Positions 9,027 to 56,157 of a stretch of 62,929 bases of DNA are shown piece after piece. The notes beneath the pieces are model-generated. The model was not told the origin of the DNA. It saw only the letters and a program-made list of their open reading frames with translations, and did no database searches. The translations under genes were made by a program, and so were the position numbers. Positions within the stretch are counted from its first letter, which is position 1; every line of letters starts with the position of its first letter. Location: the IMG/VR virus record IMGVR_UViG_3300034392_000002; one strand, written 5' to 3'. This stretch comes from a virus.

Positions 9027-9383
9027 TTGAGCACGACCGTTTGTCCAAGGTGCGGTAGACAGGAAATATATCGCTCACGACGGCGCAACCTCTTAGAGCG
9101 CCTTCTTTCCTTTGTCGGCGTTGTCCCTTTTCGCTGCGGCGGCTGTACTCACAGGTTTTTCCGGCGCAACCTCAACGGGGGAGATATGAGATTCCCAAAA
9201 ACTAAGCCGATGCGATGGTGTGACTTCTGCAAGTGGATAACCGATGTCTCATCTAAAGATAAAACCCTCTGCGCTTTTTGCGGCAAGCCCTACGCTACTG
9301 GCTGGAAGCGATTTGCAAGCTTCGTGCAGAGAAAATATAGAGATTGGAAGATGGGCTACAAAGAGAAGAAGGGGGCGGATTGA
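9027..9383 (+). CDS. zinc-ribbon protein
   Basis: TTG start; CPRCG...RCGGC and CDFC...CAFCG pairs. Confidence 0.4.
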   Translation: MSTTVCPRCGRQEIYRSRRRNLLERLLSFVGVVPFRCGGCTHRFFRRNLNGGDMRFPKTKPMRWCDFCKWITDVSSKDKTLCAFCGKPYATGWKRFASFVQRKYRDWKMGYKEKKGAD

Positions 9384-9485
9384 AGACACCCTTGCCCCTT
9401 TTCTGTGCAGAATTTCCAGTTTAGAAAGAATCTAGCGCGCCTCTTTTTTATTTTACGGCACGAATCAACGGGTGCTCCAGCGACT

Positions 9486-10997: not shown

Positions 10998-11007
10998 GCC
11001 TCTCACC

Positions 11008-26970: not shown

Positions 26971-28209
26971 TTAAGCCGCGTAAGCCTGCATCCACGTCGG
27001 GAATCCGGCGGCGGAGAACAGCACCGCGCCGTCAACGACCACGCGCGCATTACGCTGCACGTTGGCAAACCCGGTGATGATTGAGGCAAACGTGCCGCTG
27101 ATCTGCTTGGAGACGATGCGTTCCGACTCAACGAGGAGCGGTCGGGCCGTGAGCTGCACGAGCGCAGAAGATGGGTCTGCAAACACCATCTTCTGGCCGG
27201 GCACTTTCAAGCTGAGATACAAGTCCTGCATCGTCGGCAGCGGCGACCGCAGGCGTGTCGGGGCGAGCGCGGCCGCGCCGGGGAACTGCGTCCTCAACAC
27301 TTCGGGGAGCATCAGGTAATCGAGCGCGGTTGTGGCGTTGCCGATAATCGCCGTCGAACTGCGACCGAGCAATCCCATTTGAATCCAGACGCGCACCACA
27401 TCTCGGTATGTGATGCCATCGTCCGTGTCTTCGACGCCGATGACTGCCGCCGCCTCGCTGCCGTCGGCCTGGTCGCCGTTGATGAGCGCGAGCACCGCGT
27501 CGCCGTTGAGGATATGACCAAGGATTCTCCCAAAGTCTTCGAAGAAGAGAGCGACCATGTCGAGGCTGTTGAATTCAATGGCCTCGTAGGTAATCTCGAT
27601 TCCCTTAGCGCGCTTCCTGACGGCGACTTCTTTGGAGCCGTACTTGACGGTGCCGACTTCGATGGTCGCGCCCTCTTCACTCTCGGCCAGCGCGGCCTCG
27701 GACAAATCGAGGTGCGGCATCGTGACGGTCATGTTGCCGACCGTGATTTCACGAATGACTAGGTCAGGATAGAAGACCGACTGCACAGCGCCGCGCATAA
27801 TCGGGTCCATGATGACTTCCGGCGAGATCCAGCGCGTGCCGCCAGCGCCGCCTTCGCTCGTGACCGTAAAGGAACTGACGGACTGCTGCATCTTCTTGAA
27901 AGCAGCTTGCATCTGCTCGCGCTGCGCGATGCCCATCCCGCGCAGGATGGCCTCGCGCATAATCTCCGGCAGCAGCCACGCCGTATCATCGTCGCTCATT
28001 AGGGAGCGGACGGTCGTAAAGCTCGGATTGATGCCAAGCTCCGCGAACAACATCTCCGGCGTCGCGCCCGGATGGCTCTCCGCGAGGTATTCGCGCAGGC
28101 CGATGTTGCGTGGCTCATTCACGTTCTGGCGCATTGCTTCCATCGCCTTGACAATCGAGCGGACTTTTCCCTTCAGTCCATGAGTCGCAGTCTTCTTCTG
28201 GACGGTCAT
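26971..28209 (-). CDS. major capsid protein
   Basis: 412 aa; lies after the protease/scaffold and decoration genes; N-terminal LFAELGINPSFTTVRSLM...LLPEIMREAILRG resembles capsid families. Confidence 0.7.
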   Translation of the reverse strand: MTVQKKTATHGLKGKVRSIVKAMEAMRQNVNEPRNIGLREYLAESHPGATPEMLFAELGINPSFTTVRSLMSDDDTAWLLPEIMREAILRGMGIAQREQMQAAFKKMQQSVSSFTVTSEGGAGGTRWISPEVIMDPIMRGAVQSVFYPDLVIREITVGNMTVTMPHLDLSEAALAESEEGATIEVGTVKYGSKEVAVRKRAKGIEITYEAIEFNSLDMVALFFEDFGRILGHILNGDAVLALINGDQADGSEAAAVIGVEDTDDGITYRDVVRVWIQMGLLGRSSTAIIGNATTALDYLMLPEVLRTQFPGAAALAPTRLRSPLPTMQDLYLSLKVPGQKMVFADPSSALVQLTARPLLVESERIVSKQISGTFASIITGFANVQRNARVVVDGAVLFSAAGFPTWMQAYAA

Positions 28210-28733: not shown

Positions 28734-30026
28734 TTAGTTAAAGAGCGATTTGCCGGCAGGCGCAGCAGGCGCGCGGTTTTCCAACGTCTCGTCCGAAGGA
28801 GTCTCAACAGACGAGCGGCCACTCACGTTGGTCGAGCCGCAATCCTGACAGGTAGACTTGAACTTCGCCGCTGCCTTCTCGGTGTACAACTTGGTCAGGT
28901 CTACGAGCTGCGACGCCGATGCTTTGTTGATGATGTCAGCAAGAGCAACCGGCAGAGTGCCTTCGGCGTCCGCTTCGGCCAGAGTGGCGACGCGCAGGCA
29001 TTCGGCGCGTGCTTCACCCATCAGCGTTTCGCCGGCTTCGGCCGCGGCTGCAAGTTCCTCGAGCTTGGACAGCACGATTGAATCCGGCACGTCCTCGCCC
29101 TCATGGGCTTCAAGGCCCAACTTCTTTTTCTGTTCGGCACTAAGTTTCACGGTCGGATTCTCCTTTACAGTTTGGGCAGCGGCGCTGGCCTCAGATGGTT
29201 GAGTCGGGCTGGAAGCTGGCGGAGCGGGCGGCGCTGAATTTTGAGATGTGGCGGAAGCTGCAAAGTCGTCATCGTCTCTCTCTCTGTCTGAGCCGCGCTT
29301 GGCCAGCCTGTCCGCTCCCTGCGTGACGAGAGAAATTTCGTGATAAGCCTCAATCTTGGTGGCTATCAGGCGAACGATTGAGCCTTCTACTTCCTCGCCG
29401 AGCAGGTCACGGAATTTGCCGTCCTTCTCAAGCTCAGGGTGTGAATACTCGTAAGTGAAGACAACAGTGACGGAGACGCTGTGAATCGCAGGCGGCTTCA
29501 TCAAGAGGCCGCGCGCTATCCTGGGGCTAATCTTCCAGTCAATCTTTAGTTCGGCGTTGATGCCCGGAGTGCCTTCCGAGAATTGCCCGGCCTGATCCCA
29601 CAGCGATTGATTAACAGCGCCGAGCCATCCCTCGACTTTCTTGTTGTCGTGGTTCGGATACACCGTCTGTCCGGCCAGCAAAGGCACGCTGGCATTGAGC
29701 ACGTCAACAGGGAACTCGACCCAGTGGCCGGGAATGATGACAGCGGAAAGAGCGCGAAAGAGCGGATAGATATAATCCGTATCCTTCGGCATGATGTCTT
29801 CGACGGTCTCGAACTTCGGCCCGCGCTCTGGCTCGATATTGATATTCGTGTCGAAGAAAAAGGAACGGCGCGCAGTCTCGTCGGCGAAACTCTCAGCGGC
29901 CGCCGCCGTCATAATGTCGGGAGCAACCGGCGAAGCGTTGACGCCGAAAGTCCCGCCGAACGGCAACAAAAGGTCAACGCTCGCGAGACGTTTCTTCAGA
30001 TTGAGAATGCGGATGTTTGTGTCCAT
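28734..30026 (-). CDS. prohead protease / scaffold fusion
   Basis: QTVYPNHDNKKVEGWLGAV (HK97-type protease His region), Ala/Glu-rich coiled C-terminal half; lies between the portal and capsid genes. Confidence 0.55.
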   Translation of the reverse strand: MDTNIRILNLKKRLASVDLLLPFGGTFGVNASPVAPDIMTAAAAESFADETARRSFFFDTNINIEPERGPKFETVEDIMPKDTDYIYPLFRALSAVIIPGHWVEFPVDVLNASVPLLAGQTVYPNHDNKKVEGWLGAVNQSLWDQAGQFSEGTPGINAELKIDWKISPRIARGLLMKPPAIHSVSVTVVFTYEYSHPELEKDGKFRDLLGEEVEGSIVRLIATKIEAYHEISLVTQGADRLAKRGSDRERDDDDFAASATSQNSAPPAPPASSPTQPSEASAAAQTVKENPTVKLSAEQKKKLGLEAHEGEDVPDSIVLSKLEELAAAAEAGETLMGEARAECLRVATLAEADAEGTLPVALADIINKASASQLVDLTKLYTEKAAAKFKSTCQDCGSTNVSGRSSVETPSDETLENRAPAAPAGKSLFN

Positions 30027-30634: not shown

Positions 30635-32257
30635 TTAGGCCGCTACTTCCAGCACCTCCGGCAAAGCGCGATAGCTCTGCGAATCTTTGTCAAATCTCAG
30701 CGTGATAAGAGACGATGCGCTGCCTTTGCGCATTGCGGAAAGCGCACGCAATGCCTTCGCCGCCTCCGGGTCTTTGACCATCAAAGCAGGATCGTAGGCT
30801 GATTCATAACCACATTCCTGAGCGGCCTTATCAGGTGAAATCATGCCTTTCTGAGCTTTGAAGACAGCAGTCTCTGTTCTGACCTGTTCAGCGGTAGCTT
30901 CATTAACGGCATTGCTGGCAGGTGGGCGATTAAACCCGATGGAGATACCGTCAACCTCGATTCCCCCGAGACGCAAATCCAGCATGTATGTTCTCTCCTG
31001 CCTGCGCTTGGGTAAGCGCTGCATATTGCCGGACTGAGCCTTCATAAAGTTGTACACCACGCCGGCGTACGTTTCGGTTGTAGAATCCGTGCGGCCATGA
31101 AAAGCAGGAAAGGTACCCATCCCGGAAAAGACTTGCTGTTCTGACTTCTCATACCATTCGACTCCACCATGAGAATCTGCCGTGAGATTGTCGTGTTTAA
31201 CTGTCTGGTCCTCGTATGTCACAATGATGCCCTTGTTGCTGAGCTTCTCGGCGGCAGCGCCGACTTGGGATTGATAAACCCTCAGGCGAGTTCGATAGGC
31301 AGTTTCTGTTTCATCAGCCTCTTTATCCGGCTTCTTAATCTGAATCGAAATCACACCCAGCAGGCCAAACTTCTTAGCGATAAATTTAATGTTATCCAAC
31401 ATGTCCTTCTGCGATCCTGTAATCGGCTCGATGGCAGCTGTCGCAGGCGGCTTGGCGTAAGGGCTGTTTTCGACTGTTTCCAGAGCGTAGTAACGATATG
31501 TCTCATCGCTTAAGCGGATCAGACCAAGAGGCGAGCGGGCCAGACCTGCTGCCACTCCAGGTTGCTGGTGCGGTATATACTCGCCTTCGATGTGGCGAAA
31601 GCGAATCTGCTCAACAGGGACAATGACTACCTTCTCGACCCGTCGCTTGCTGAAATTCACCACATCTTCGGAAGAGAGAGCGCCCGACCATGCTATCTGC
31701 CGTAAATAAGCATTGATGAGTCCGTCAATGCCTGCACCATTTTTGTAGAGCCTTGCCGCTGACTCATTGAGGCGCTTAATAGCCTGCTGCGTGCGTCGCG
31801 CAGACGAGGCCTCGACGACGATGTTATGACCCGTGTTGCCGAGGTTGACGACGTTGGCGACATACTGGCTCATATCAGGATTGAAAATCATCAGATGCTT
31901 TAGTAGAGCCAGCATCTCAAAATCAATCACAGGGCTTACGCTGCCGTAGAAGGCGAGTGAAGAACCGAAGCGGTCGGCCAGCGTACCTTCCACCGACGAG
32001 CGGCCTGATTCGGGCAACTCCATGCCATTGACGCGCCTCGTGGCGCGCTCTCTAAGAACAGGTGCGAGGAAGCGGAGCTGCTCTGGTGTAGCGTTATTGA
32101 TGAGCGATGTCAGCGGTTCAGCAAGTGAGCCGTGAGCGGTGGAGTCGGCAAGCGTGGCCAGATATAAACATTCCGCCCTGACAGCGAGAGCAGCGTCTCT
32201 CCTATCTAAGCCAAACGCAGAGCGGAACCATTTCTTAAGGTCATTCCAGTAGTCCAT
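30635..32257 (-). CDS. portal protein
   Basis: 540 aa immediately after TerL (TAATG overlap); size and position. Confidence 0.7.
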   Translation of the reverse strand: MDYWNDLKKWFRSAFGLDRRDAALAVRAECLYLATLADSTAHGSLAEPLTSLINNATPEQLRFLAPVLRERATRRVNGMELPESGRSSVEGTLADRFGSSLAFYGSVSPVIDFEMLALLKHLMIFNPDMSQYVANVVNLGNTGHNIVVEASSARRTQQAIKRLNESAARLYKNGAGIDGLINAYLRQIAWSGALSSEDVVNFSKRRVEKVVIVPVEQIRFRHIEGEYIPHQQPGVAAGLARSPLGLIRLSDETYRYYALETVENSPYAKPPATAAIEPITGSQKDMLDNIKFIAKKFGLLGVISIQIKKPDKEADETETAYRTRLRVYQSQVGAAAEKLSNKGIIVTYEDQTVKHDNLTADSHGGVEWYEKSEQQVFSGMGTFPAFHGRTDSTTETYAGVVYNFMKAQSGNMQRLPKRRQERTYMLDLRLGGIEVDGISIGFNRPPASNAVNEATAEQVRTETAVFKAQKGMISPDKAAQECGYESAYDPALMVKDPEAAKALRALSAMRKGSASSLITLRFDKDSQSYRALPEVLEVAA

Positions 32258-34080
32258 TAGTCATCGTCTCCTGTCCACGGCAACGTGCCAGTGTAGGTTG
32301 AGCGCGGTAAAGTCACCCGCGCAATATGATCGTAAACGCAGGCATGGAAGTAATCGTCCGGCTTGCTGTGTACCCACTTAGGCAGGTCTTTGCCCTCTTT
32401 GTTTTTAACAATCACCCGGATGGGAGCTTTCATCTGCGCGGAAATCTCAGCATCGTTGTGTATAGGAGATGGCCATCGCTCTTTCGCCATCGCAATCTGA
32501 TTAAAGACAGCATCCATCGCCATCGTCCGATTGACGTTGATAATGTCCTCTACCTTCTGCGGGTCAACCTCCTTGACTTCGACGCCGTGCATCTTCTTTT
32601 CTTCTTTCGCTGGCAGCCGGAACAATTCGCCATTGAAATCAGTGTTCGGGTAAAACGCGCGTCTGACTCTGCCCTTATGCGCGTTAGCGAACTCTTTTAT
32701 CGCAGTCGGGTCGTACGCGCCGTCTACTACTGCTTGCCGGACGCGGTAGGTCGTCATCAATTCGGCGAGCTGCTGGTTTATGGAGCGGCCTGGTTCAGGA
32801 ACGAGGAAACCCATCTTGCGCACGTACACCACGTTATCCGGCCCAACTGAAGTGATGCGGTAGTAATAGCGAGCGCCTCCGTCTACACCCATCGTCGTAT
32901 CGCGCCATGGGCCAGTGTCCATCAGCCCGGGCGGGATTTCGACGCTCAACTGCTTGAGCATCTCGTCTGTGATGCCGCTGTCTTTCGGCGTGTAGGCGCG
33001 GCCCAAGAACGAGCGATGCAGCTCGGCGATGACTTCAGGGTCGGTGCTGACGGCCATCACGGCCAGCTTGTTGAGATTGAGCTTGCCGCAGGAAAGTGCA
33101 GGTACATCATAGCCGCTGTAAATCTTATTCTCGGGGTGGCGCGCAGTCCATCGCCCCGGCCCGAAAGTATCTATGGGCTGCTGGCACGAAGGGCAGGCAA
33201 CGTACATCTTCGCGGCTGCTACCTGCTCCTTGTCCCATTTCTTCCAGACTTCGTACCCTTCGCCGTCTGCCCGCGCGTCGCGAAAGAAATCAAGCTCATT
33301 CCACTCTTTGCACGAGCCGCACTCGACCTCCCAGACTTTCTGGTCTGATTCCAGATAGAGGGCATCAATACCCATGTTCGGATAGGTAGGCGTGGAGAGC
33401 GTGAATTTATATTCGAGGTCTGAGTTGGCTAGTCGCGCTTCAGCGAGCGCGACAATGTTTGGCTGGATGCGGTCGAATTCATCGAGCACCAGCAAGTCGG
33501 CGTCAAAGGAAAGCATGTCAGGAATTGACTTGCCTCCCGCCAGATGCATGCTGCTCGGGCCGGCCTTCTTAAAAAATACGGAATCGTATTCTGTGAACAG
33601 GTCTCTGAGGTGTTCAGATTCCGCAATCAGGTTAGAGAAGCGCTGCTTGGAAAAGGAACTCAGCGCCTTGCTGGTGGAGAAGAGATAGCCGACGTTCAGG
33701 CCCTCCTTATCGGTATCAAAATACTTGGCACCGACATCGAGCATGTGACACGACCGGGTGACAGCTAAGGTTGACAAACCTTTCTGTGAAGGTTTTTTGA
33801 CGACGATATTAGGATGAGGGTCGTTATAGATTTGGATGAGTGGGATGAAGCTTCGACGGCGCTTCGGGTCATACTCTAGCGAAAATGGCTTGTTATCAAA
33901 GCGGCGGTAGAGGTACGCCCACTCGAGCTGAGATGGCGGGGGCAACTCTTCATCGTCTTGCCCCGCGGCCGGTGCAGGCTCAGCCGTCTGTTCGTCGGGC
34001 AGAAATGTCAATAACATTTCCGCCAGCAAGGCGACGGAGATCGGTTTTGACTCGCTGCTTTGATTCCGGGTCTGTGACAT
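32257..34080 (-). CDS. terL: terminase large subunit
   Basis: Walker-B-like LLVLDEFD; ~600 aa upstream of the portal; start uncertain (34113, 34080 or 34017) because it overlaps the upstream gene. Confidence 0.75.
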   Translation of the reverse strand: MSQTRNQSSESKPISVALLAEMLLTFLPDEQTAEPAPAAGQDDEELPPPSQLEWAYLYRRFDNKPFSLEYDPKRRRSFIPLIQIYNDPHPNIVVKKPSQKGLSTLAVTRSCHMLDVGAKYFDTDKEGLNVGYLFSTSKALSSFSKQRFSNLIAESEHLRDLFTEYDSVFFKKAGPSSMHLAGGKSIPDMLSFDADLLVLDEFDRIQPNIVALAEARLANSDLEYKFTLSTPTYPNMGIDALYLESDQKVWEVECGSCKEWNELDFFRDARADGEGYEVWKKWDKEQVAAAKMYVACPSCQQPIDTFGPGRWTARHPENKIYSGYDVPALSCGKLNLNKLAVMAVSTDPEVIAELHRSFLGRAYTPKDSGITDEMLKQLSVEIPPGLMDTGPWRDTTMGVDGGARYYYRITSVGPDNVVYVRKMGFLVPEPGRSINQQLAELMTTYRVRQAVVDGAYDPTAIKEFANAHKGRVRRAFYPNTDFNGELFRLPAKEEKKMHGVEVKEVDPQKVEDIINVNRTMAMDAVFNQIAMAKERWPSPIHNDAEISAQMKAPIRVIVKNKEGKDLPKWVHSKPDDYFHACVYDHIARVTLPRSTYTGTLPWTGDDD

Positions 34081-34735
34081 TACGTTCGATTGAAGCGGCC
34101 AGCAGTTGAACAAACCGCATCACCTGCTCCTGCAAATCCACCTTTGATTGAGCGACAAGCCGTTTGGATTCTGCCTCGACGAGGCGTGCGCGCTTTGTCC
34201 ACGCCAGTTCTTCGATCTTCTCCCAGTCCTTATCTTCGCTGACACCTTTGCGCAGGATGCTGAGAAGGCGCTGCAAGGCTTCTATGGCTTTGTCGCGATC
34301 CTTGGCTGCCTGTGCGGCGATGAATTCCTCGCAGGCTTCGAGCGCCGAGGCGACTGTGGCAATGCCAGCTCCTATCTTGCTGCGTGCGTGGAGTATTTCG
34401 ACGCGCATGTCCAGCAGCGAGATGTCGGGTCGCAGGGAGAGCAACTCCGTATCTTCTTTGCGTTGCTGAAAGATGGCCAGCAAGTCGGGATCGAGCACAC
34501 CCTCGTAACGTCGTGCGTGCGTACCATCCTTGAATTTGTGGTGCTCGAGACCTTTGACAGAGTTGCCACCGTGTTTGTGGCAGCGCAGGCCGTCTTTCTT
34601 GTGATGGCGCTTGCAGGGCCCGCGCTCGGTCTTGGCGCGACAGTGGACGGTGCAATATAGCCCTTTCCGCCCTTTGATTTTGACCAGCTCCTGCGCGCAT
34701 TCCGGCTTGCCTTTCTCCTTGATTCCGCATTGCAT
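33980..34735 (-). CDS. putative terminase small subunit
   Basis: Cys/His-rich basic N-terminus (HKHGGNSVKGLEHHKFKDG), then LLSLRPDISLLDMRVEIL; lies upstream of TerL. Confidence 0.45.
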   Translation of the reverse strand: MQCGIKEKGKPECAQELVKIKGRKGLYCTVHCRAKTERGPCKRHHKKDGLRCHKHGGNSVKGLEHHKFKDGTHARRYEGVLDPDLLAIFQQRKEDTELLSLRPDISLLDMRVEILHARSKIGAGIATVASALEACEEFIAAQAAKDRDKAIEALQRLLSILRKGVSEDKDWEKIEELAWTKRARLVEAESKRLVAQSKVDLQEQVMRFVQLLAASIERNVTDPESKQRVKTDLRRLAGGNVIDISARRTDG

Positions 34736-36471: not shown

Positions 36472-36954
36472 TCAGAAGAAAACGCTGCTGGTAATCTTTC
36501 TCAAAACCTCCGGCATGGAAACAGGGCTTTTCGAAAAGCCGTTCGACGATTTAAGCTCGTTGCAATCCGTCTTTCGATGGCTGAGCAGGCAATAGATAGA
36601 GCTGATGAGTTGCGGCATGGTGATGGGCTTGGTTAAGACTTCCATCCCGAACTCTTCAGCGTTCTCATGCGTCACGCTGCGGTCATAGGCTGTCAGGAAC
36701 GCTTTGACGATGTGCGGGTAATGTTCGTGGAGCACCGCTGCGACCGTCGCCCCTGATTCTCCCAGCAGATTGACATCGAGGATGGCGGCGGCAACCGGCT
36801 GGCTGGCGATGATGTTCAGCGCTTCATCCGCCGTCTCCGCGAAAACGGTGCGGAACGCAGGTTGGTAAACCTTCATGCCATGCTCGACCATGGCGCGGAT
36901 GTCATCCACATCGTCAACGAATAAGACCAGAGGCAGAGATGTTGTCTCGCTCAT
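36472..36954 (-). CDS. stand-alone response-regulator receiver (CheY-like REC) domain protein
   Basis: LFVDDVDD, phospho-acceptor-like ILDVNL, FLTAY and LTKPI in canonical order. Confidence 0.7.
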   Translation of the reverse strand: MSETTSLPLVLFVDDVDDIRAMVEHGMKVYQPAFRTVFAETADEALNIIASQPVAAAILDVNLLGESGATVAAVLHEHYPHIVKAFLTAYDRSVTHENAEEFGMEVLTKPITMPQLISSIYCLLSHRKTDCNELKSSNGFSKSPVSMPEVLRKITSSVFF

Positions 36955-39249: not shown

Positions 39250-39555
39250 TTATGTAGTGAATCCAGAGCGCCGTTCGATGATGCGCCTATCCCTTTCTTC
39301 CTCTCTTCGCATTTTCAGGCAGTTGTCGCACCGTCGCTTTTTTTTTCCGCGTTTCTTCTCTACTGGTCTTCCGCAGTCCCAGCACAGCCCTCGTTTTTTC
39401 AGACGCCTACGATAAGCAGCCATACCTTTTTTCGCTCTTGCGTTCTTTTCATCGGCGTGCGTTCGACAGAAGCTCGATGTGCCGTCAGTCCCGCGCGGAC
39501 ATCCACATTTGCCGCACAGTCCCTGAGCTATTCGCTGGTCGAAGAGTCGAGCCAC
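39250..39555 (-). CDS. basic zinc-finger protein in the Q/Ogr position (candidate late regulator)
   Basis: CGKCGC...CRTH and CWDCG...CDNC; last gene before the late promoter candidate. Confidence 0.4.
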   Translation of the reverse strand: MARLFDQRIAQGLCGKCGCPRGTDGTSSFCRTHADEKNARAKKGMAAYRRRLKKRGLCWDCGRPVEKKRGKKKRRCDNCLKMRREEERDRRIIERRSGFTT

Positions 39556-39990: not shown

Positions 39991-40779
39991 TTACGTCTCA
40001 TTAAATTGCAATGTGCGCTGTGCCGGTGCACAGATTTGTCCCGATGCTTCTGCACACAGACCAAGCACTTCGAGTTCTACTTTGAGTCCTTCACCATAGC
40101 CGGCGAAATATCCATCAGGGACAGGCGGCGGGACTGAAAGAGATCGCGCCTGCTTCATCTGTGCGCGGCTCAAAAATTCATTGAGCGCGACTTCCTTACC
40201 GGGCAGTGCCAACGCGTCTACGGGCACCTCAACAGCGCGGTTGTCCTTCTGTTTCGCGCGCTGCTGATAGCGAAACCCGATTGCAGCAGAGAAGCCGATA
40301 TAAAAGGAAAAGAGAAAAGCCTTATCGCCGGGCCATTCAGGATAGACAAGTTGCTCATAAAACTTCTTCGCACGGCGCGTGTTGTCCTTCGCTCTCTCCT
40401 GCGCAAGGCGGGCCAAACGGCAAAAGGCAAAGATGGATAGTTCCACCTCCTCACGTCGGCCGAAGAACAAGAGCACATTCGATGCGGGCTGAATGCCTGT
40501 GCGGCAGTCGTGGGCACAGGCGATCACCTGCGCCAACTGCTCGGCCCAAGCGACACGTCGCTTGCTCTTAGATTGTCCCCATGCGGCAGGGTTAAGAGCG
40601 TAACCTCCGATTTCCGACGGCGTGACTTCCGAGGCATCAATATCTTCCTGCGTCAGGTTGTTTTCAGCCATCAACCGGCGGGCGCGCTCGCTGAAAGCAT
40701 CTGCCTCCGCAGTATTGCCGAGGCCCGCGGCGCTCTTTGCATGGCGCTGTAACTTCCGAATGGTATCAATAATCTTCAT
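39991..40779 (-). CDS. DUF2786-like protein
   Basis: Start refined to ATG 40779 after ggagg; IRKLQRHAKSAAGLGNTAEADAFSERARRLMAENNL. Confidence 0.5.
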   Translation of the reverse strand: MKIIDTIRKLQRHAKSAAGLGNTAEADAFSERARRLMAENNLTQEDIDASEVTPSEIGGYALNPAAWGQSKSKRRVAWAEQLAQVIACAHDCRTGIQPASNVLLFFGRREEVELSIFAFCRLARLAQERAKDNTRRAKKFYEQLVYPEWPGDKAFLFSFYIGFSAAIGFRYQQRAKQKDNRAVEVPVDALALPGKEVALNEFLSRAQMKQARSLSVPPPVPDGYFAGYGEGLKVELEVLGLCAEASGQICAPAQRTLQFNET

Positions 40780-40849
40780 CGTTTCCACAACCTCCAGAGC
40801 ACGCCACAGACAATCACAATCAGCACTATGCAGAGAGGAATCAGAGGGT

Positions 40850-41041
40850 TCACGAGCCGGTCTCCGCCTGCACATCCCCGGCATGCTGCGCTTCATACAC
40901 AGGCTTGCAGGCGCAGAGCAATTCATCTGTATAGCCAAGCTGCTCTGCGTCTTTGACGATTTCGAGCAGCTCCTTCAGTCGAGCGTCTGTGGCCAACTGA
41001 GTCAAGCTGCCGATGATGTTAGTCACGGCTGCATCAGCCAT
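40850..41041 (-). CDS. small hypothetical protein
   Basis: ATG 41041 after gggagg; the longer track ORF overlaps the upstream gene. Confidence 0.45.
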   Translation of the reverse strand: MADAAVTNIIGSLTQLATDARLKELLEIVKDAEQLGYTDELLCACKPVYEAQHAGDVQAETGS

Positions 41042-41079
41042 CTTGTGTGATACCTCCCAATAGAAACCATCTTTGCACC

Positions 41080-41634
41080 TCAACTCTCTGCGCGTGGCAG
41101 AATAATGAAAGGCTCTCGCACGCCTCCGCTCCAGCGCTGGGCGGTACGCAGCGCATCCTCTAAAACCTCCTCTGGCGAGAGAGTTGTTCGTCGCGTCAAA
41201 GCATCCAGCGAGCCAAGCGCCACTTGAGCACCGCAACCGAGGGCGTTAAAGTCAATGGCGACTCTCTCGACCTGAAAATCGCCATACACCGAAAAGAGTT
41301 CGCCGCGATAGCCGACCATGAACGCGCCGCCTGAATCTTCGCGTCCATGTTCTTTGGTGGCCCAGCCACTTTGTTTGAGACAATCGCGGACAGCATCAAC
41401 GAAAGTTGTCACCATGAATTTTTCCGTGGAACATTCCTCGGGATGCTGCGGCGGCGAGAAAGAGTATCGGAGGAGTTGCCCCATGCGGTATGAAGCGGAG
41501 AACCCCATCACGAAAGGGCCATTGATGAAGACCTTTTCGTCGGCGCGTACAGTGAGTTCAAGGCCGCTCATGGCAGCGCTATCGCCACCGATCCAAACTC
41601 TTCCTTGAGATTTGATTCCGACGATGCAGGTCAC
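41080..41634 (-). CDS. HslV/proteasome beta-type Ntn-hydrolase (threonine peptidase-like)
   Basis: M-TCIVGI start; counting from Thr as residue 1 gives D17 (GGDS) and K33 (EKVF); GCGAQVALGSL corresponds to the GSG region. Confidence 0.6.
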   Translation of the reverse strand: MTCIVGIKSQGRVWIGGDSAAMSGLELTVRADEKVFINGPFVMGFSASYRMGQLLRYSFSPPQHPEECSTEKFMVTTFVDAVRDCLKQSGWATKEHGREDSGGAFMVGYRGELFSVYGDFQVERVAIDFNALGCGAQVALGSLDALTRRTTLSPEEVLEDALRTAQRWSGGVREPFIILPRAES

Positions 41635-41638
41635 TATC

Positions 41639-41878
41639 TCAACCTCCGTGCTGACAGTTGTGCATTGGACACGGCATCAAGGTGAAGGTGATCGACTTGT
41701 CATCGTTCATAACCTTTTGAGCCATTTGAGGGCCACTGAGAGCAAAGAATGATTCGACCTGTTCAGCCGTGACAGTCAATTCACCACCCAGCGAATGCAA
41801 AATCAGACATAGTGCAGCGAACGCCAGGTTCGGATCGCCCTGGTTCGGTTCATGTTGTTCAACTTCAGCTTCAGCCAT
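41639..41878 (-). CDS. hypothetical protein
   Basis: 79-aa ORF. Confidence 0.45.
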   Translation of the reverse strand: MAEAEVEQHEPNQGDPNLAFAALCLILHSLGGELTVTAEQVESFFALSGPQMAQKVMNDDKSITFTLMPCPMHNCQHGG

Positions 41879-41937
41879 GATGAAACCCTTTCACACATAA
41901 CAATGATTATCAGACCCCAACTATTTGCTTCGCCTGA

Positions 41938-42342
41938 CTATCCGATAAAGACGATTTCTTCGATCTCTTCGACCTCATAGTCGCCTGTCCCTTCGGCGGT
42001 CGAGACGGTCACGAAGTCGCCTTCACCCGTAAACTCTATCTTGCGCGGGATACCTTTCTCGCCGCTCTTGAGCCTCACGCAGCCCTGCTCATGCACAGTT
42101 TCAATGAGTCTGTTAATCGTGACAGCGCGCTTCATCTCTTCGCCTTCAGGGTTCTCGGCATCTGTATCTTCAAAGCGAAACGGATACCGCCCTTCGCGCA
42201 GAGCGACCAGCCAGCGCTCGAATAACGAGATCAGTTCCAGACGGCATCGCTCAAGCGTGACGGCATGCTTGACAGGGATGCTGAAGTCGAGGCCCTGCTC
42301 GCGCGTCGAATAAACGATTTCGATTAGTTTAGTTTCACTCAT
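41938..42342 (-). CDS. hypothetical protein
   Basis: 134-aa ORF. Confidence 0.5.
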   Translation of the reverse strand: MSETKLIEIVYSTREQGLDFSIPVKHAVTLERCRLELISLFERWLVALREGRYPFRFEDTDAENPEGEEMKRAVTINRLIETVHEQGCVRLKSGEKGIPRKIEFTGEGDFVTVSTAEGTGDYEVEEIEEIVFIG

Positions 42343-42363
42343 TCATCAAAACTCACTGGTGGA

Positions 42364-44007
42364 TTATTCAATAACATTGACCTTCATGCTCGGAATGGAT
42401 TTGAACCCTGCGCGCGGCTCAATGGTGAGAAAGCCCATCTCAGCCAGCGCTTTGAGGGCTTTATCCACATTACGAGAGTCGTGCCGCCAGTGACGTTTCG
42501 CCATCTCGGTAGCCACTGCGTTTGCCGACTTAGGTTGGTCGAAGAATCCTTCTGCGATGAACAGCGCGCACCGCCCGCGTAAGCTGCTCGTATCACATTT
42601 GACTGTCTCACGCGGATGTCTGACTTCCATCTCAGCGATGGGCTGTGTAAGCACCATCTTGATGCCCTCTTCGCCGCCGAGACGCGCCAAGACCTCCTGC
42701 GTTAACTGCTTGAGATTGACTGAACCGTCGTTGCCACCAGCAGGCATGGACGCCTTGACCTCTTCAATCACCTGCGGCAACACCAGCTCGGCAACTTGTC
42801 GCGGGTCGATCTCTGCACCGGCGCTCGTCACTACTGCGCCCGGCTGGTTTCTAATCGCATCTGCTAGATTATTGATGGCAGCAGTCAGTGCTGTTGCGTC
42901 GAACATCTCCTCATCATCCTCTCTGCGCGTCAGGGCCACCGGCTTCGGCCGCGCGCTCTGTGCCGGGCGGGGCACGTCCGCGATTGCACGTTCGCCTGTT
43001 GCAATCATTCTGGCGTCCTCAACTTTCATCCACGCTGGCTGCACGTAGACCTGCTTGACAGCTTTCCCGTAACAGGCGAAGAACTCCCCGCGGCCCAATG
43101 TCATTACGTCCGAGGCTTTAGGCTTCTGTGTTCCCGCGGGGATGTTGTCAAGCGTGCGTCGCACCTCGTTAGCTTCGCGCTGCACGCCGACAATCCAGAC
43201 GGTCGCGGCGCGCAACATCAGTTTCCAGATGCCTGCGATGTCCTGACTATCCATCCAGACATAATTCCCTAACCCTGCGCCTTCGCGAATCAGCTTTTCG
43301 GCAGACGGCTTAACGACCGTCATGCGCGCTTCAGGGATAAACTTCCACGCTTCAGGCATGATGATGATGACATTGCGCTCGCGCTGGTGAACCCACTCGA
43401 CGACAGAGCGCACGACGAGCATCTGCATCTCTTCGGTGTAGGCGCTTAAATCCATGACGTTGAGGCCCGGAGAGAGCGTGACGCGAGATGCCGCAGGCAG
43501 GCGCTTAATCTGCGGCAGCACGATGTCGAGATATTCGCCGAGCAGCATGAAGAGGTCTTTATCCATCTGCCGGCGTGCCTCGCGCTGAAGCTCCGTGATG
43601 TTGGCGCGCACGTCTGTGAGCGAGTGTGCACCCTGTGCGGCCTTCACAATCCATGCCCGCTCGAACTTCATCTTGTGCTTCATTACTGACGCCATTAAGG
43701 ATTCCACCAGCTCCCAGTAGGGTCGCCCCTCGGACGCCGCTTCGTGAAAGTAGGGCGGGCACTCACGCGCCGCGGCGAAACTCGTCTCGCCGCGCTTGGT
43801 CTTAAAGGCAATGGCGCGCACGTCCGCGCCAGCGCGCGAGATTAAGGCTTCGAGCGTCGTCGTCTTCCCGGACTCCTGCGTCTGGCCGGTCACGGCCAAG
43901 TGGCGCAGTGGGACGGATACAGGCGCACCCGTTTGTATCTCAAAGCCCAGCAGAATTGTTTTCTCTGTTCGATTCATCATCAGGGTTGGGTCGGAGCTAA
44001 AGACCAT
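42364..44007 (-). CDS. HerA/FtsK-like P-loop ATPase with a winged-helix-like C-terminus
   Basis: RHLAVTGQTQESGKTT Walker A; VIIIMPEAWKFIP Walker-B-like; start uncertain. Confidence 0.55.
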   Translation of the reverse strand: MVFSSDPTLMMNRTEKTILLGFEIQTGAPVSVPLRHLAVTGQTQESGKTTTLEALISRAGADVRAIAFKTKRGETSFAAARECPPYFHEAASEGRPYWELVESLMASVMKHKMKFERAWIVKAAQGAHSLTDVRANITELQREARRQMDKDLFMLLGEYLDIVLPQIKRLPAASRVTLSPGLNVMDLSAYTEEMQMLVVRSVVEWVHQRERNVIIIMPEAWKFIPEARMTVVKPSAEKLIREGAGLGNYVWMDSQDIAGIWKLMLRAATVWIVGVQREANEVRRTLDNIPAGTQKPKASDVMTLGRGEFFACYGKAVKQVYVQPAWMKVEDARMIATGERAIADVPRPAQSARPKPVALTRREDDEEMFDATALTAAINNLADAIRNQPGAVVTSAGAEIDPRQVAELVLPQVIEEVKASMPAGGNDGSVNLKQLTQEVLARLGGEEGIKMVLTQPIAEMEVRHPRETVKCDTSSLRGRCALFIAEGFFDQPKSANAVATEMAKRHWRHDSRNVDKALKALAEMGFLTIEPRAGFKSIPSMKVNVIE

Positions 44008-44180
44008 CTGTCAGCCGAGCTGATAGGTCATCCGTTTGGAGCGCATGTCATCGGGAGGCCGCATGGTTTAGACCTCACTCGCAGAGAATCCCCTCGCAGA
44101 ATTCCCTCTCTTGAACGACTCGATGCGTTACGGTCCCAGCGAAGGCCGCTCGGCTTCGGATGCTCCCTTGACCCATAAAT

Positions 44181-44384
44181 TCATTTCCTCTTCGGAGATT
44201 CGCCAATCACTTCATCAGGCTGCCGCCGGTAAATACGCACCTCGTAATAGTCTGGCTCTTTCCTTGAGTAGCTGCTCTCGTGCAGGTCTACACTGAGACC
44301 CGCAGCGTGAGCATGTTTCAACTGCTGGTTAAGCACCTGTGTAAGTTGAACGATGTTGTCGGCAATCTCTTTATCGGTTGGCAT
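44181..44384 (-). CDS. hypothetical protein
   Basis: 67-aa ORF. Confidence 0.4.
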   Translation of the reverse strand: MPTDKEIADNIVQLTQVLNQQLKHAHAAGLSVDLHESSYSRKEPDYYEVRIYRRQPDEVIGESPKRK

Positions 44385-44847
44385 AAGCCCTCTCCAGTTT
44401 CAATAATTGAGTAATGGCCGCTTCCAGCTTGCCCAGCGTCGAATGTTGTTTGCCGTCCCACGGCTTCGTGTAATCAGGCATGTCTTCCGAATCAAGCTCG
44501 GTATGAAAGCTAATCTGCTCACAGCCCGGAATCTCGAAGTAGACGATGAAGCGCGGATAGCCGCCCTCGCTTCCCTGCTTCCCGTAGGTCCAGCCCTGCT
44601 CCTTGAAATGGCCGATGAGCTGGTAAATCAAATCCTGCTTCTTCTGGTAGTAGGTGTAGCGCCATTCGCCGCCGTACTTTTTAGCGACGCTTGAAGCGTC
44701 TTCGATTTCCAGCGCGAGGCGAAAAGCCCGGGCGACGGCGCATGAACGTGCGTGCGTGTTTAAGAGCAGCTTGACCTTGCGCGTGCCGAGGCCGCAGAAC
44801 CTCTCGCGCGCGGTGGTTAATTGTCTGACGGCTTCAGATCTGCCCAT
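44371..44847 (-). CDS. hypothetical phage protein (YFEIPGCEQISFH family-like)
   Basis: 158-aa ORF. Confidence 0.5.
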   Translation of the reverse strand: MGRSEAVRQLTTARERFCGLGTRKVKLLLNTHARSCAVARAFRLALEIEDASSVAKKYGGEWRYTYYQKKQDLIYQLIGHFKEQGWTYGKQGSEGGYPRFIVYFEIPGCEQISFHTELDSEDMPDYTKPWDGKQHSTLGKLEAAITQLLKLERAYANR

Positions 44848-45595: not shown

Positions 45596-46050
45596 GACTG
45601 GTTGACACTCTCCTTCCCTGCCGTCTCATCTGCGAGAGGCACATAACCTCGTTCTTTGTAGAGCGCCAGCAGGATGTCTTCCAGAGTTTCGGCCGCCCAC
45701 TCTTTCCGCTCTCCGTCTTCAGTCGTCGTGAAGATTTGCAGAGCGCCTAAGCCCAGCTCCGCGTACACGCGCTTGGACTTCGCAGACCGGGCGTAATAGC
45801 CTGACCTGGCTAATGAGTTGACCTCGCGCCGCCAGCCCTGGCAGATGACCATGAAGCCGGTTTGCACGGCCACGCGCTGCTCGGCCCGCGTCACGCTCCC
45901 CAAATCGCGGAGAGTGCCGTCGGCCCCGTGGTGGCAATAGAACGGGATTGCGCCGAGCAGACAGAGTTGCGCGCGGATAAAATTGTGCGGCTCAAGATTG
46001 GCTTCAGCGCCGGTAGTGAAAGCGCAGCTGGCGCATGCTGGTTTAGCCAT
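45580..46050 (-). CDS. Cys-rich hypothetical protein
   Basis: ATG 46050 after ggagag. Confidence 0.45.
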   Translation of the reverse strand: MAKPACASCAFTTGAEANLEPHNFIRAQLCLLGAIPFYCHHGADGTLRDLGSVTRAEQRVAVQTGFMVICQGWRREVNSLARSGYYARSAKSKRVYAELGLGALQIFTTTEDGERKEWAAETLEDILLALYKERGYVPLADETAGKESVNQSCLET

Positions 46051-47047
46051 CGTTCTGTTCTCTCCCGTATTGCCTGATGGCGTCGATTTCAGCGTTGTGT
46101 TCTTCACACATCTTTGCAAAGCAGTCCTGGCTACAGATGATGTCTCCACCTGCACCTTCACACCAGCAGTCAATAAGTCCTGCCCCCTGACATAACTCAC
46201 AATCAATCCACATCGCCGGCGCGCCGCAATCAGGGCACGTCACTGGGGGCCCACTCTCGCCGCCGACGATGACCCAATCAATAAACGCACGCTCGCCACT
46301 CCGGGCGATGAGTTTGCCATTGATCTTCATGCCGGCAGCGCACAAGTCCAGCGGCCCAAGCAGCGGCTCGGCAGAAACAAAACGCACGGCAGCGGGAAGT
46401 TGTAAAAGGAAGGGCAAGCGCTTGTCGGCCTCCGGCTGGTTCTCCGCCGACGTGCCGATCCAGACGTTGGGCAGCGGCCAGATTTGATGCGAGTCAATCA
46501 AGCCGACACGTGCCATCCATTCATCATATTCAGGACGCAAGTCCTTGTGCGGGCTGTAACAGTAATCAGCGATGATGTTGGCTTGCTCACAAGAGATGTC
46601 GTTCCAGACTCCCGGCCCGATGCCAAGCCGCGATGCCTTGGTCAGGTAAGCGAGCGCGCGGTCAGGATGTTTGGTGAGTATTTGAAAGACATGCCAGTGG
46701 CAAATCGCCATCACGCCGAAGATTTTATCGAGCCATTCATCTTTGACGTTCGGGTGGAAGAGATCGGACTCGGAGTTGACGAAGATTTTAAGCGGCCGGC
46801 GCAGGTTGAGAACCGATAATAAGACCTCTTCATCGAAGTTGATCCGGCCAGTCCAGTTCAGATTACCCTTGCTGTCTTTAGTGACCGTGCCCTCATAGCG
46901 CTTAGCGATCTTCGGATTCGGGTTGTGCATAAGCCGCCAAGCGACGCGAATCGCATAGCAGTTCATACAGCCCAAAGATTTCTTCGAGCAGCCGATCAAG
47001 CAATTCAGCGTCATGCCCGTCCACTCGATAATTGAGTTGAGAGACAT
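46043..47047 (-). CDS. phage Gp37/Gp68 (DUF5131) family protein with a Cys-rich C-terminal extension
   Basis: IIEWTGMTLNCLIGCSKKSLGCMNCYA signature. Confidence 0.7.
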   Translation of the reverse strand: MSLNSIIEWTGMTLNCLIGCSKKSLGCMNCYAIRVAWRLMHNPNPKIAKRYEGTVTKDSKGNLNWTGRINFDEEVLLSVLNLRRPLKIFVNSESDLFHPNVKDEWLDKIFGVMAICHWHVFQILTKHPDRALAYLTKASRLGIGPGVWNDISCEQANIIADYCYSPHKDLRPEYDEWMARVGLIDSHQIWPLPNVWIGTSAENQPEADKRLPFLLQLPAAVRFVSAEPLLGPLDLCAAGMKINGKLIARSGERAFIDWVIVGGESGPPVTCPDCGAPAMWIDCELCQGAGLIDCWCEGAGGDIICSQDCFAKMCEEHNAEIDAIRQYGREQNDG

Positions 47048-48116: not shown

Positions 48117-49268
48117 CTACTCTTTTCTTCTCCGGCGTCGGCCTCTGCGCTTCGCTTTGCGCGGTCGCAGTTTGCGCCGGCGCTTAAAGGGCAACACCAC
48201 GAGGCGCATCGCGCGGCGCTGGCCCTTCTCTTTTCGGTGGTCGTAAATCTGTGTGGTCTCGACGCGCGCGTGGCCGAGGAGCTGCTGCACGTCCGTAATC
48301 TCTGCGCCCTGGTCCAACAGGTGTGTAGCGAAGGTGTGGCGCAGGCCGTGCGGCGTGCAGGTGCTCTCGAGGCGCGCCTCGCAGGAACGCCGGAGCACGA
48401 TCTTGTAGGGAGCATCCTGACTTAACGGTTTGAGCGAGACTTCTCCCTGCCGCGTGATAGAGCAAAGGAAGGGACCGGGCTTTCCGCCTCGCAGCACAAT
48501 CCAATCGGTAAGTGCGCGCAAGGTTCCTTTGTCTTCGAGGAAGATGCGCCGCTCCTTATTGCCCTTACCAATGACCGTCAGTGTGCGCTCGCGGTGATTG
48601 AAGTTTGAGAGTTGTAATTCGATAGCCTCGGACTTTCGCAGGCCTGCGCCGGCGAGTAATGCAAGGAGCGCCGCGTCCCGCGCGGCGACCAGACTTCGGC
48701 CACGCCCTTGCGCGCACGCTGTAAAGAGAGCCGCCAACTCTTCGAGAGAAAGAGCGCGGGCGCGTTGGAGCCGCACGCCTTCGGCTGGCTTGACTTCGAG
48801 AATGCGGTCGAGTTGTTCCTGACTGATGAGTTTGCTTCTTCTGGCCTGCCGCATCACGCCCCTGATGGCCGAGAGCGTGGCGTTGACGGTCGCGGGTGCA
48901 AGCCCGTCGAAGAGCATCCGGGAGCGCAGGCGCTCGACCTCGACAAAGGTGATTTGCTTCCAGTTGATTTCTCCGACCGTGGTGCGCAAGTACCTGGCGA
49001 CGCGCCGGAGGTTTCTGAACATGGACTCGCGCGAACACTGGCTTGAGAGCGTGATGATGTAGTGGACGGCCGGGCTGATTTCCGCGACGGCGCTCTCTGT
49101 GAGAGCGCGTCGTTCCTCCTGCTCGATGAAGGCCGCGAGCGAGAGCCGGAGCGAGCGCTGGCGTAGCGTGGCAGCCTCCGGGCCGCCCTCGATCACGCGC
49201 AGGGGCCGAGGCTGTGCGGCCGCGCTCTCGCTCTCTGTGGAGTGATTCGTGATAATAGGCGTTTTCAC
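48117..49268 (-). CDS. int: tyrosine recombinase (integrase/XerC-D-like) with an Arg/Lys-rich tail
   Basis: HGLRHTFATHLLDQGAEITDVQQLLGHARVETTQIYDH. Confidence 0.85.
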   Translation of the reverse strand: MKTPIITNHSTESESAAAQPRPLRVIEGGPEAATLRQRSLRLSLAAFIEQEERRALTESAVAEISPAVHYIITLSSQCSRESMFRNLRRVARYLRTTVGEINWKQITFVEVERLRSRMLFDGLAPATVNATLSAIRGVMRQARRSKLISQEQLDRILEVKPAEGVRLQRARALSLEELAALFTACAQGRGRSLVAARDAALLALLAGAGLRKSEAIELQLSNFNHRERTLTVIGKGNKERRIFLEDKGTLRALTDWIVLRGGKPGPFLCSITRQGEVSLKPLSQDAPYKIVLRRSCEARLESTCTPHGLRHTFATHLLDQGAEITDVQQLLGHARVETTQIYDHRKEKGQRRAMRLVVLPFKRRRKLRPRKAKRRGRRRRRKE

Positions 49269-54843: not shown

Positions 54844-56157
54844 CTAGGAAGCGGTAGCCGTCGCTGCTTCGGCCTTCTGTTGACAGAGCCGGGTCAGATG
54901 TTCTGTGAAAAGCGTGGCCGAGTGCTTAGAGAGTTCGTCAACCTTGCATTTCGTCAGGCGCATGCATTCAGCATCCGCGTCAACACCTGCGTCCTGGGCC
55001 AACTGCTTGATGATGTTCTCCTGCGCTCGCGTAATGAGGTCGCTTTTCGTCTTCGCCTGCGGGTTGGCAGGAAATTTAACGTGCGATGTGAGTTGGGAGG
55101 TCGAGATTGAACCTGCTGGCGCTACTGGCGTCTGGCCTGCGCTCACGGTCGCTTGTGACGGTTGCTGAGCTTCAAGCCAGAACTTTACGATGAGGATATG
55201 CTCACAGCGGTACTGTGGATTCTCTTTGACTAGCTCAACAAACTCGGCGCAGGTGCAATGCACCTTTTTCTTCTCGTCTTTCCATATCTCGTATCTCTCC
55301 GTCGGCGTCGTCAGGCTCGGCATTGTGACGGCGTAACGGTCTTCATCACGTTCGACCGTTCCCGGCATTGCGGCGATGGCCCGCGCTCGCCTCTCCATCT
55401 GGCTTGTGTCATCACTGTGCGCGTCAATTTGCGCTGTGGCAGCGGGGATGTAAGTGGTCCGTTCAGGTGCGGGTGCGCCAGCGGCAAGCCACCCCATGAT
55501 TTCTCTCGCGAGAGAACCGTCGGGCTTGGCAATAATTCTGCCTGAGAGAGAAACCATGCGCGTCTTCTCAATGGTCAGGGTGTTATCAATTGAGAGCTGA
55601 CCGATGATGTCAAATTCATATTCGACGCCGTCGCGCTGGATGGCGGCGAGTCCGATGCGTCGGGGTACAGACTTGTTGCGGTCATCTCGCTCGACGACGT
55701 AATCAGTCTTGACGCGCATTGTCGCAATGACGTGCATCGGAGCTTCGAGGATGGCGGCGATCAGCTTGTTCTGAAGCGGCGTGCCGACTCTGCCCCACTC
55801 AGCAAACGAGTTGCCGCCGCGTGAGTTGACTTGGTCGAGCACGCCGCCCTCTGCATTCCACGCGTGCGAAAGACTATCAATCACGATGACACTGTAGCCA
55901 GCTTCGGCCGCGGCGTTGATGGCGGCGATATAATGATTAGGGTTGAAATTGGATAGAGCGCAGGAGTCGAACTCGAAGATGTCGCTGTACAGCGAAGCCG
56001 AATTGCGCTCGGTGTCGAGCACGGCGATCCGACCCTCGGCAGCCAGTTCCTTTGCCAGCACCAGCGCCGTGTATGTTTTGCCGCTCCCTGATGGCCCCAT
56101 CAATGCCATGCGCAGTCTGCGTTGTACTTTTGTAGCCTTGATAAATTGAAAGGTCAT
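54844..56157 (-). CDS. AAA_24 (Sak4-like RecA-fold) ATPase with a C-terminal SWIM zinc finger
   Basis: LMGPSGSGKTYTA, VIVIDSLSHAW; CTC...(14)...CEH. Confidence 0.65.
   Translation of the reverse strand: MTFQFIKATKVQRRLRMALMGPSGSGKTYTALVLAKELAAEGRIAVLDTERNSASLYSDIFEFDSCALSNFNPNHYIAAINAAAEAGYSVIVIDSLSHAWNAEGGVLDQVNSRGGNSFAEWGRVGTPLQNKLIAAILEAPMHVIATMRVKTDYVVERDDRNKSVPRRIGLAAIQRDGVEYEFDIIGQLSIDNTLTIEKTRMVSLSGRIIAKPDGSLAREIMGWLAAGAPAPERTTYIPAATAQIDAHSDDTSQMERRARAIAAMPGTVERDEDRYAVTMPSLTTPTERYEIWKDEKKKVHCTCAEFVELVKENPQYRCEHILIVKFWLEAQQPSQATVSAGQTPVAPAGSISTSQLTSHVKFPANPQAKTKSDLITRAQENIIKQLAQDAGVDADAECMRLTKCKVDELSKHSATLFTEHLTRLCQQKAEAATATAS

Follow-up and report, generated by a model that had tools for sequence, protein, structure and literature searches.

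The closest solved relatives of the protein described here are the bacterial BPH proteins (Betaproteobacteria proteasome homologue), which form a tetradecameric double ring, bind epoxomicin covalently and apparently work without a partner unfoldase (PMC5777263). In 2021, Fuchs, Alva and Lupas reported three proteasome homologues carried by phages, PPH, AAH and CPH, which branch out from BPH in a cluster map; many phage genomes encode AAH (PMC8665760). The only relative on a mobile element with an experimentally shown activity is Rrp (SP_1145), which resides on a phage-like mobile element of S. pneumoniae TIGR4 and clips the N-terminal extension of bL27 (bioRxiv 10.64898/2026.08.10.744006). For phage HslV-like proteins, our literature searches returned genome-annotation mentions only and no experiments. 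Here, we analyze a gene for a protein of 184 amino acids (aa) in the IMG/VR virus record IMGVR_UViG_3300034392_000002, a stretch of 62,929 nucleotides (nt) to which we refer as the window. Its sequence and predicted structure indicate that the gene encodes a proteasome-fold subunit with an intact, strongly conserved Thr1/Asp17/Lys33/Gly site. With moderate confidence, we read the product as a stand-alone proteasome-type N-terminal nucleophile (Ntn) threonine peptidase of group I that fits AAH and would act without a dedicated unfoldase, a reading that draws on sequence, model and analogy.

The fold is apparent from structure prediction. The AlphaFold2 model of the peptidase, computed from an alignment of 108 homologues (alignment A1), has a predicted local distance difference test score (pLDDT) of 93.4 and a predicted template modeling (TM) score of 0.89. 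It displays the alpha-beta-beta-alpha sandwich that proteasome subunits share, with the full beta-sandwich and helices H1 (residues 49-57), H2 (70-88), H3 (136-146) and H4 (154-168), and it contains neither insertions nor a C-terminal H5. In a Foldseek comparison with the PDB, the top match was BPH of Thiobacillus denitrificans (5ovt_A, E=1.4e-12, TM 0.81). The BPH structures 5ovt and 5ovs scored at E about 1e-12 with TM values of 0.80-0.81, HslV structures came second (TM 0.68-0.78) and 20S beta subunits lower. The search gave 1,138 PDB matches at E<=1e-3, of which the best 50 listed are all BPH, HslV or 20S subunits. A search of the PDB with the family profile again ranked BPH first (5ovu, full-length) and HslV next, and the BPH alignment pairs T with T, D with D, K with K and GCG with GSG.

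Taken alone, the single protein gives little sequence evidence for the proteasome fold outside the phage family library. Searching PDB sequences with phmmer returned HslV at E=0.003-0.007, and the Pfam Proteasome model (PF00227) matched the N-terminal 45 residues only, at 21.6 bits and thus under its gathering threshold of 22.4. The PHROGs search, by contrast, returned phrog_1040, ‘peptidase HslV family’, at E=2.3e-17. Only 5 of the 108 family members match PF00227 at E<=0.01, which places the family essentially outside this model. Superfamily membership therefore rests on structure and catalytic residues, and protein databases list no domain for family members because so few of them match PF00227. 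An initial annotation of the locus had proposed an HslV/proteasome-type fold with T1, D17 and K33 as catalytic residues, to be checked by fold and structure searches. HMMER, the profile search, the AlphaFold2 model and Foldseek uphold both the fold and the superposition of these residues, and Foldseek places the protein in, rather than outside, the proteasome fold.

The N-terminus of the protein, MTCIVGIKSQGRVWIGGDSAAMSGLELTVRADEKVF, begins with M-T-C-I-V-G. Counting Met as residue 1 puts the putative catalytic residues at T2, D18 and K34; once the Met is off, they are numbered T1, D17 and K33. The 184-aa open reading frame (ORF) is as given in the initial annotation, and direct reading of the three codons bears out its T1-D17-K33 spacing (Table 1). 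In the alignments, D17, K33 and the oxyanion Gly correspond to D17, K33 and G45 of HslV and to their BPH equivalents. Likewise, a GCGAQVALGSL segment had been placed at the position of the GSG loop, and HMMER alignments indeed pair its GCG with the G-S-G of HslV and BPH.

Conservation across the family follows the same residues. T2, D18, K34, G44, S48, R50, M51, G52, Q53, G133 and G135 are invariant in A1, and C3 and C134 are kept in >=90% of its sequences. We also fitted a wider set of 271 sequences, including 150 representatives of 50%-identity clusters, to the family profile. Among these relatives T2, D18, K34, G44, G133 and G135 are 98-100% conserved: the nucleophile position is Thr in 265 and Ser in 3, the Asp17 position is D and the Lys33 position is K in 270 each, and the oxyanion Gly (G44; Gly45 in HslV and Gly47 in 20S) is present in all 271. 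At the center of the G-x-G loop, 222 relatives have Cys, 29 have Ser and 10 have Ala. Exactly one residue precedes the Thr in 247 of the 271. Because the initiator residue alone stands before Thr in these members, the family lacks a propeptide and must therefore depend on removal of the initiator Met.

Upon inspection of the alignments, we noticed two further features. The family carries two near-invariant cysteines, one right after the catalytic Thr (T-C-I-V, as in BPH) and one at the equivalent of Ser129. In addition, the sequence S-F-R-M-G-Q-L-L-R-Y, which is family-specific and almost invariant, lies where helix H1 begins.

Connectase, which is a monomeric ligase, also belongs to the proteasome-like family (PMC8665760), and the protein could in principle be an Ntn enzyme other than a general peptidase, that is a connectase-like transpeptidase or ligase, or a small-molecule amidohydrolase. 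The replacement of Ser129 by Cys and the second near-invariant Cys after Thr1 would suit such an enzyme, and the H1 motif hints at a specific binding surface. However, the helical insertion between S3 and S4 that defines connectase is missing from the model, which is a compact H1-H4 core, and the nearest relatives, BPH and HslV, are peptidases (PMC5777263). We therefore consider this reading improbable.

The peptidase is an ordinary member of a large, catalogued, phage-disseminated family that is already known in phages. We found 3,614 homologues at E<=1e-3 in a 90%-identity collection. At the level of 50%-identity clusters there are 8,054 at E<=1e-3 and 2,771 at E<=1e-30. Family members are present in 339 IMG/VR stretches, and a match at E<=1e-3 (TM up to 0.93) was obtained for 39 predicted viral structures of BFVD. 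Homologues occur in 83 deposited phage genomes, including those of Moorella phage MTATph1 (50% identity), Psychrobacter phage D'Alembert, Geobacillus virus E3, many Vibrio and Aeromonas phages and jumbo coliphages. There they are labeled ‘peptidase HslV family’, ‘Ntn_hydrolase-like protein’, ‘proteasome subunit’ or ‘nucleophile aminohydrolase’. The family is thus spread by phages, and the initial impression that this is not a standard phage function is contradicted by PHROG 1040, by the 83 phage genomes and by the published survey (PMC8665760). Genomic relatives are found in Frankia, Parafrankia, Streptomyces, Actinoplanes, Actinomadura, Rhizobiales, Rhodospirillales, Paenibacillus/Bacillaceae and Dehalococcoidia. 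Among these, Frankia, Streptomyces and Actinoplanes often carry family members, and for Frankia conservation of the gene extends to all four genera.

Within the described groups, the peptidase is most probably an AAH family member, belonging to the HslV/BPH-related group I, as judged against the published AAH set by its description only. The compact architecture of 184 aa, the proximity to BPH and the taxonomic spread of the relatives fit AAH and exclude PPH. Like AAH as described (PMC8665760), the model is a compact protein of ~180 aa with H1-H4, no insertions and no S12/H5. Both have the catalytic residues Thr1, Asp17 and Lys33, both are nearest to BPH, and neither has a characterized function. 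Both are distributed over Actinobacteria, alpha-proteobacteria, prophages of Firmicutes and many phage genomes. The two sets differ in size: 240 nr90 sequences were reported for AAH in 2021 (PMC8665760), whereas we count the 8,054 clusters given above. PPH also belongs to the group I proteasome homologues, is carried by phages and has these catalytic residues too, but it measures ~140 aa and lacks H2, which spans residues 70-88 in the 184-aa phage protein.

Comparison with BPH itself (5ovs/5ovt/5ovu) shows both close resemblance and clear differences. BPH gives the best structure match (TM 0.80-0.81) and the best PDB profile match; it shares the M-T-C start, its Thr1, Asp17, Lys33 and G-x-G loop align with ours, and no partner unfoldase is known for it. 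By contrast, identity is only about 20%. BPH has an elongated, highly acidic inner pore loop (EDEDDpyess...) in place of the short, mixed-charge loop of the phage family (ATKEHGREDSGG), and G-S-G where the phage peptidase has G-C-G. Moreover, BPH is cellular and encoded in stress-regulated operons, whereas the family of the phage peptidase is phage-spread.

The name most often attached to these proteins is HslV, and the peptidase could be a true HslV (ClpQ) orthologue that docks on the host's HslU, either forming an ATP-dependent protease of altered specificity or titrating HslU. Automatic names in JGI and UniRef (‘ATP-dependent protease HslVU peptidase subunit’) and the name of PHROG 1040 point this way, as do the strong Foldseek matches to HslV structures. 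The fold is indeed the same (TM about 0.7), the length is similar, the catalytic residues align, and HslV, which also lacks a propeptide, likewise matures by Met removal. Yet the two NCBIfam equivalog models for HslV (NF003964 and TIGR03692) are missed by more than 100 bits, with scores of 19.3 against a cut-off of 137 and 18.5 against a cut-off of 157.75, and BPH is closer in structure (TM 0.81 versus about 0.70-0.75). In the strict sense, the HslV label of the initial annotation thus does not hold: the protein is not HslV proper. No HslU gene was found among the window ORFs scanned or in related loci, and an hslU-like gene adjoins the peptidase in none of the 160 loci introduced below. In addition, the family abounds in Frankia, Streptomyces and Actinoplanes, where its genes are conserved on the chromosome, and it thrives in HslVU-free Actinobacteria, a phylum without HslV (PMC8665760, Table 1). 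An HslV orthologue working through host HslU is accordingly an unlikely reading.

Rather, a stand-alone peptidase suggests the following sequence of events. The protein would be synthesized without a propeptide, and host methionine aminopeptidase would cut off the initiator Met and thereby expose Thr1. A Thr directly after the Met is tolerated by this aminopeptidase, as in E. coli HslV. The hydroxyl of Thr1 would then serve as the nucleophile, with the alpha-amino group of Thr1 and the Lys33/Asp17 pair as a proton relay, the invariant Gly (equivalent to Gly45/47) as the oxyanion hole and the G-C-G loop propping the N-terminus. By analogy with the nearest solved relatives, the subunits probably assemble into stacked rings with the active sites inside, and, like BPH, they probably cut peptides or unstructured protein segments without a dedicated unfoldase. 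Family members occur in hosts that have no HslU. We infer peptidase activity, Met removal, ring assembly and ATP independence in this scheme.

Several points weigh against this reading. The solved relatives are only about 20% identical, and profile E-values are 0.004-0.008. A Cys takes the place of Ser129 in most members, and the absence of the long acidic pore loop leaves the analogy with BPH incomplete. The AAH assignment draws on protein length, secondary structure, taxonomic distribution and association with phages, and the AAH representative WP_035979212 was not among the accessions of the 7 clusters that we looked up. Finally, the predicted peptidase may use an unfoldase of its host, such as HslU, ClpX or Mpa.

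To describe the surroundings of the relatives, we compared 80 viral and 80 genomic peptidase loci (+/-10 kb). No conserved partner gene emerged across the 80 IMG/VR loci, and none of the 160 neighborhoods contains a conserved ATPase. Head and packaging genes are frequent neighbors: TerL or portal lies <=1.5 kb from the peptidase in 25 of the 80 viral loci, and TerL, portal or the major head protein lies <=5 kb away in 36. One recurrent order is TerL, peptidase, a small phrog_502 membrane protein that is not always present, portal, S78 prohead protease and major head protein (the TerL-peptidase-portal type is seen in L015, L019-L023, L033, L038, L066 and others); a second is HNH-peptidase-x-TerL. 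Such placements would suit a morphogenetic protease for head or packaging proteins, or another late processing enzyme for phage proteins. However, the loci with the peptidase between TerL and portal keep their canonical S78 prohead protease, so that a head-maturation role for the peptidase is not required. In cultured phages, moreover, the gene sits amid hypothetical early or nucleotide-metabolism genes. The window itself encodes a separate head-maturation protease of a different fold beside its portal and major head protein genes, and its peptidase lies ~7 kb upstream of TerL among early/middle genes, as the initial annotation had recognized in stating that the gene is outside the head module and is not the prohead protease. 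In the Frankia group, the peptidase appears to be a stand-alone chromosomal gene: in three GC3-filtered loci, ORFs read by eye around it do not look phage-like, and no ATPase is adjacent. Neighborhood clustering of high-GC actinobacterial loci is corrupted by antisense ORFs. Together, these arrangements make a morphogenetic role quite unlikely.

Two other arrangements recurred or stood out. About ten large contigs (up to 480 kb; L024, L032, L035, L036, L042, L045, L047, L055, L057 and L062, around 8000..12600 of each) share a block of a Thg1-like tRNA-His guanylyltransferase, a PheRS-alpha-like protein, a small kinase, an HD_4 protein, the peptidase and an NAD-dependent DNA ligase. The 210-aa gene upstream of the peptidase in these contigs was considered as a second peptidase copy, and Pfam identifies it as an HD_4 domain protein. 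A true tandem pair of paralogues is found in L001 only (9441..10001 and 10001..10552). Both of its members start with MTCI and keep GGDSAG and Lys33, and a thymidine kinase and a dCMP deaminase follow directly; it is possible that they form a hetero-oligomer.

What such a peptidase might cut can be approached through Rrp. Like the phage protein, Rrp is a proteasome-like Ntn hydrolase on a mobile element, and it is active without a dedicated ATPase; it differs, as judged from its description, in being Anbu/beta-subunit-like with additional extended domains, and it probably belongs to another (group II/Firmicute) subfamily. By analogy, we tentatively propose that phage AAH-type homologues may be unfoldase-independent peptidases, ring-forming or not, that clip specific unstructured ends or loops in proteins of the phage or its host, as Rrp does with bL27. 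The recurrent placement next to TerL or portal and the conserved S-F-R-M-G-Q-L-L-R-Y surface motif might point to a particular partner or substrate. That host factors or defense proteins are the targets, as the initial annotation suggested, is speculative.

In the window, the peptidase is preceded by a P-loop ATPase of 547 aa, which raises the question of a new phage ATPase-protease machine made up of the peptidase, this ATPase and the ORFs of 134 and 79 aa between them. The ATPase is HerA/FtsK-like, as proposed in the initial annotation: its profile matches HerA 7f6d and DptH, and its AlphaFold2 model (pLDDT 85.7) matches HerA, the C-domain of DndH and VirB4 in Foldseek (E 1e-14 to 1e-9). The spacing of ~0.7 kb given there is equally accurate, as 730 bp separate the end of the ATPase ORF from the start of the peptidase downstream. 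All four genes run in one direction with little space between them (gaps of 21, 59 and 4 nt), the same block is found in near-identical contigs, and HerA hexamers scaffold defense effector enzymes, with SIR2-HerA and DUF4297-HerA among the Foldseek matches. By contrast, co-occurrence, which the initial annotation had suggested measuring for the peptidase with the ATPase and the 79-aa and 134-aa ORFs, is nil in both directions but for a single weak match. In tblastn searches with the ATPase, the ORFs of 79 and 134 aa, the 315-aa DUF2786 ORF and other neighbor genes, none of the 160 peptidase loci gave a match, and a hidden Markov model (HMM) of the ATPase gave the one weak match over these loci (L106, E=1e-5). 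Conversely, the peptidase is present in 0 of 80 ATPase-bearing viral loci by either tblastn or HMM. The nearest ATPase relatives (49-55% identity) have different neighbor genes; downstream of the closest one, a 179-aa gene occupies a similar position and is unrelated to the peptidase (E=25). The ATPase itself had no tblastn match in the phage collection. HerA-family proteins, furthermore, are DNA translocases, not protein unfoldases. The adjacency of peptidase and ATPase is therefore local to this phage lineage, a coincidence rather than a partnership, and we give the idea of a joint machine almost no credence.

The ATPase has a sizeable family of its own, with at least 1,302 homologues, all named ‘hypothetical’ and without a Pfam domain, in early regions of viral contigs of 40-65 kb. 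Its C-terminal helical/winged-helix-like domain is predicted confidently. An intein-type PF14528 domain is present in one member (P0291, 842 aa). A defense-system reading of the locus was set aside: PADLOC gave no match for the peptidase and only a weak mad8 match for the ATPase.

The window represents a metagenomic phage contig, complete or nearly so, with 56% G+C. A megablast search with 20 kb of it found no close deposited relative, and its TerL is at most about 25% identical to that of any deposited phage. In near-identical contigs from three further samples, JGI gene calling yields an identical 184-aa gene with identical neighbors. The co-oriented block reads, in order, HerA-like ATPase, 134-aa ORF, 79-aa ORF, peptidase, 63-aa ORF and DUF2786/DUF7168 protein (Table 1). 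Packing is tight enough that the stop codon of the 79-aa ORF (41639..41641) falls between the Shine-Dalgarno sequence and the GTG of the peptidase, and a promoter and terminator scan of 40600..44500 found nothing convincing. For the DUF2786/DUF7168 gene, the JGI call is 262 aa and DUF2786 starts at residue 55 of the 315-aa ORF; if over-extended, this ORF leaves room for the separate 63-aa gene just downstream of the peptidase. Further along, the Cys-rich 101-aa ORF sits between the DUF2786/DUF7168 gene and putative lysis genes. No HslU/ClpX-type AAA+ gene was found among the window ORFs scanned, whose P-loop proteins are the HerA-like, AAA_24 and ParA ATPases, in agreement with the initial annotation. 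The receiver protein and the tetratricopeptide repeat (TPR) protein with its Fis-type helix-turn-helix (HTH), together with ParA and the integrase, suggest a temperate or plasmid-like lifestyle.

Table 1. Positions of the peptidase gene, its predicted functional sites and other annotated features of the window.
Feature	Coordinates	Strand	Basis or remark
Peptidase gene, 184 aa	41080..41634	minus	ORF, PHROG 1040, AlphaFold2 model and Foldseek
Shine-Dalgarno GGAGG	41643..41647	minus	Spacer of 8 nt to GTG start (41632..41634); sequence reading
Thr1 codon ACC	41629..41631	minus	Predicted nucleophile after Met removal; sequence reading and alignment of 271 relatives
Asp17 codon GAT	41581..41583	minus	Aligned to GGD/GAD Asp of HslV and BPH
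Lys33 codon AAG	41533..41535	minus	Aligned to Lys33 of HslV and BPH
G-C-G loop, residues 133-135	41230..41238	minus	Counterpart of G-S-G (Ser129) loop of proteasome beta/HslV/BPH
79-aa ORF	41639..41878	minus	No Pfam, PHROG, NCBIfam or PADLOC family
134-aa ORF	41938..42342	minus	No Pfam, PHROG, NCBIfam or PADLOC family
HerA/FtsK-superfamily P-loop ATPase, 547 aa, C-terminal helical/winged-helix-like domain	42364..44007	minus	Profile and Foldseek
DUF2786/DUF7168 ORF, 315 aa, TTG start	39991..40938	minus	Probably over-extended
Cys-rich, very basic 101-aa ORF, repeated CxxC-like motifs	39250..39555	minus	No family match
Major head protein	26971..28209
Head-maturation protease	28734..30026		phrog_8158
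Portal	30635..32257
TerL	32257..34113
Stand-alone response-regulator receiver domain protein	36472..36954	minus
DUF5131 protein	46043..47047
Tyrosine integrase	48117..49268	minus
AAA_24 ATPase	54844..56157
TPR protein with Fis-type HTH, 509 aa	57834..59363	minus
ParA-type ATPase	60988..61794	minus

Phage-carried proteasome-family peptidases are common; sequence clusters of this family alone number in the thousands, and dozens of cultured phages carry it. The window adds no new kind of element to this picture; it shows the gene in an early/middle operon apart from the head protease, and it shows that the pairing with a HerA-like ATPase is a local coincidence. The function of the family is experimentally tractable, and relatives are at hand in cultured phages (gp65 of Geobacillus virus E3, CDS0188 of Moorella phage MTATph1 and DAL_45 of Psychrobacter phage D'Alembert). 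Knowing it would tell whether phages bring their own compartmentalized protease, whether this protease needs a host unfoldase and what gets cut. If site-specific clipping turned out to be true, the family would represent a widespread phage tool for host takeover, anti-defense or late-stage protein processing.

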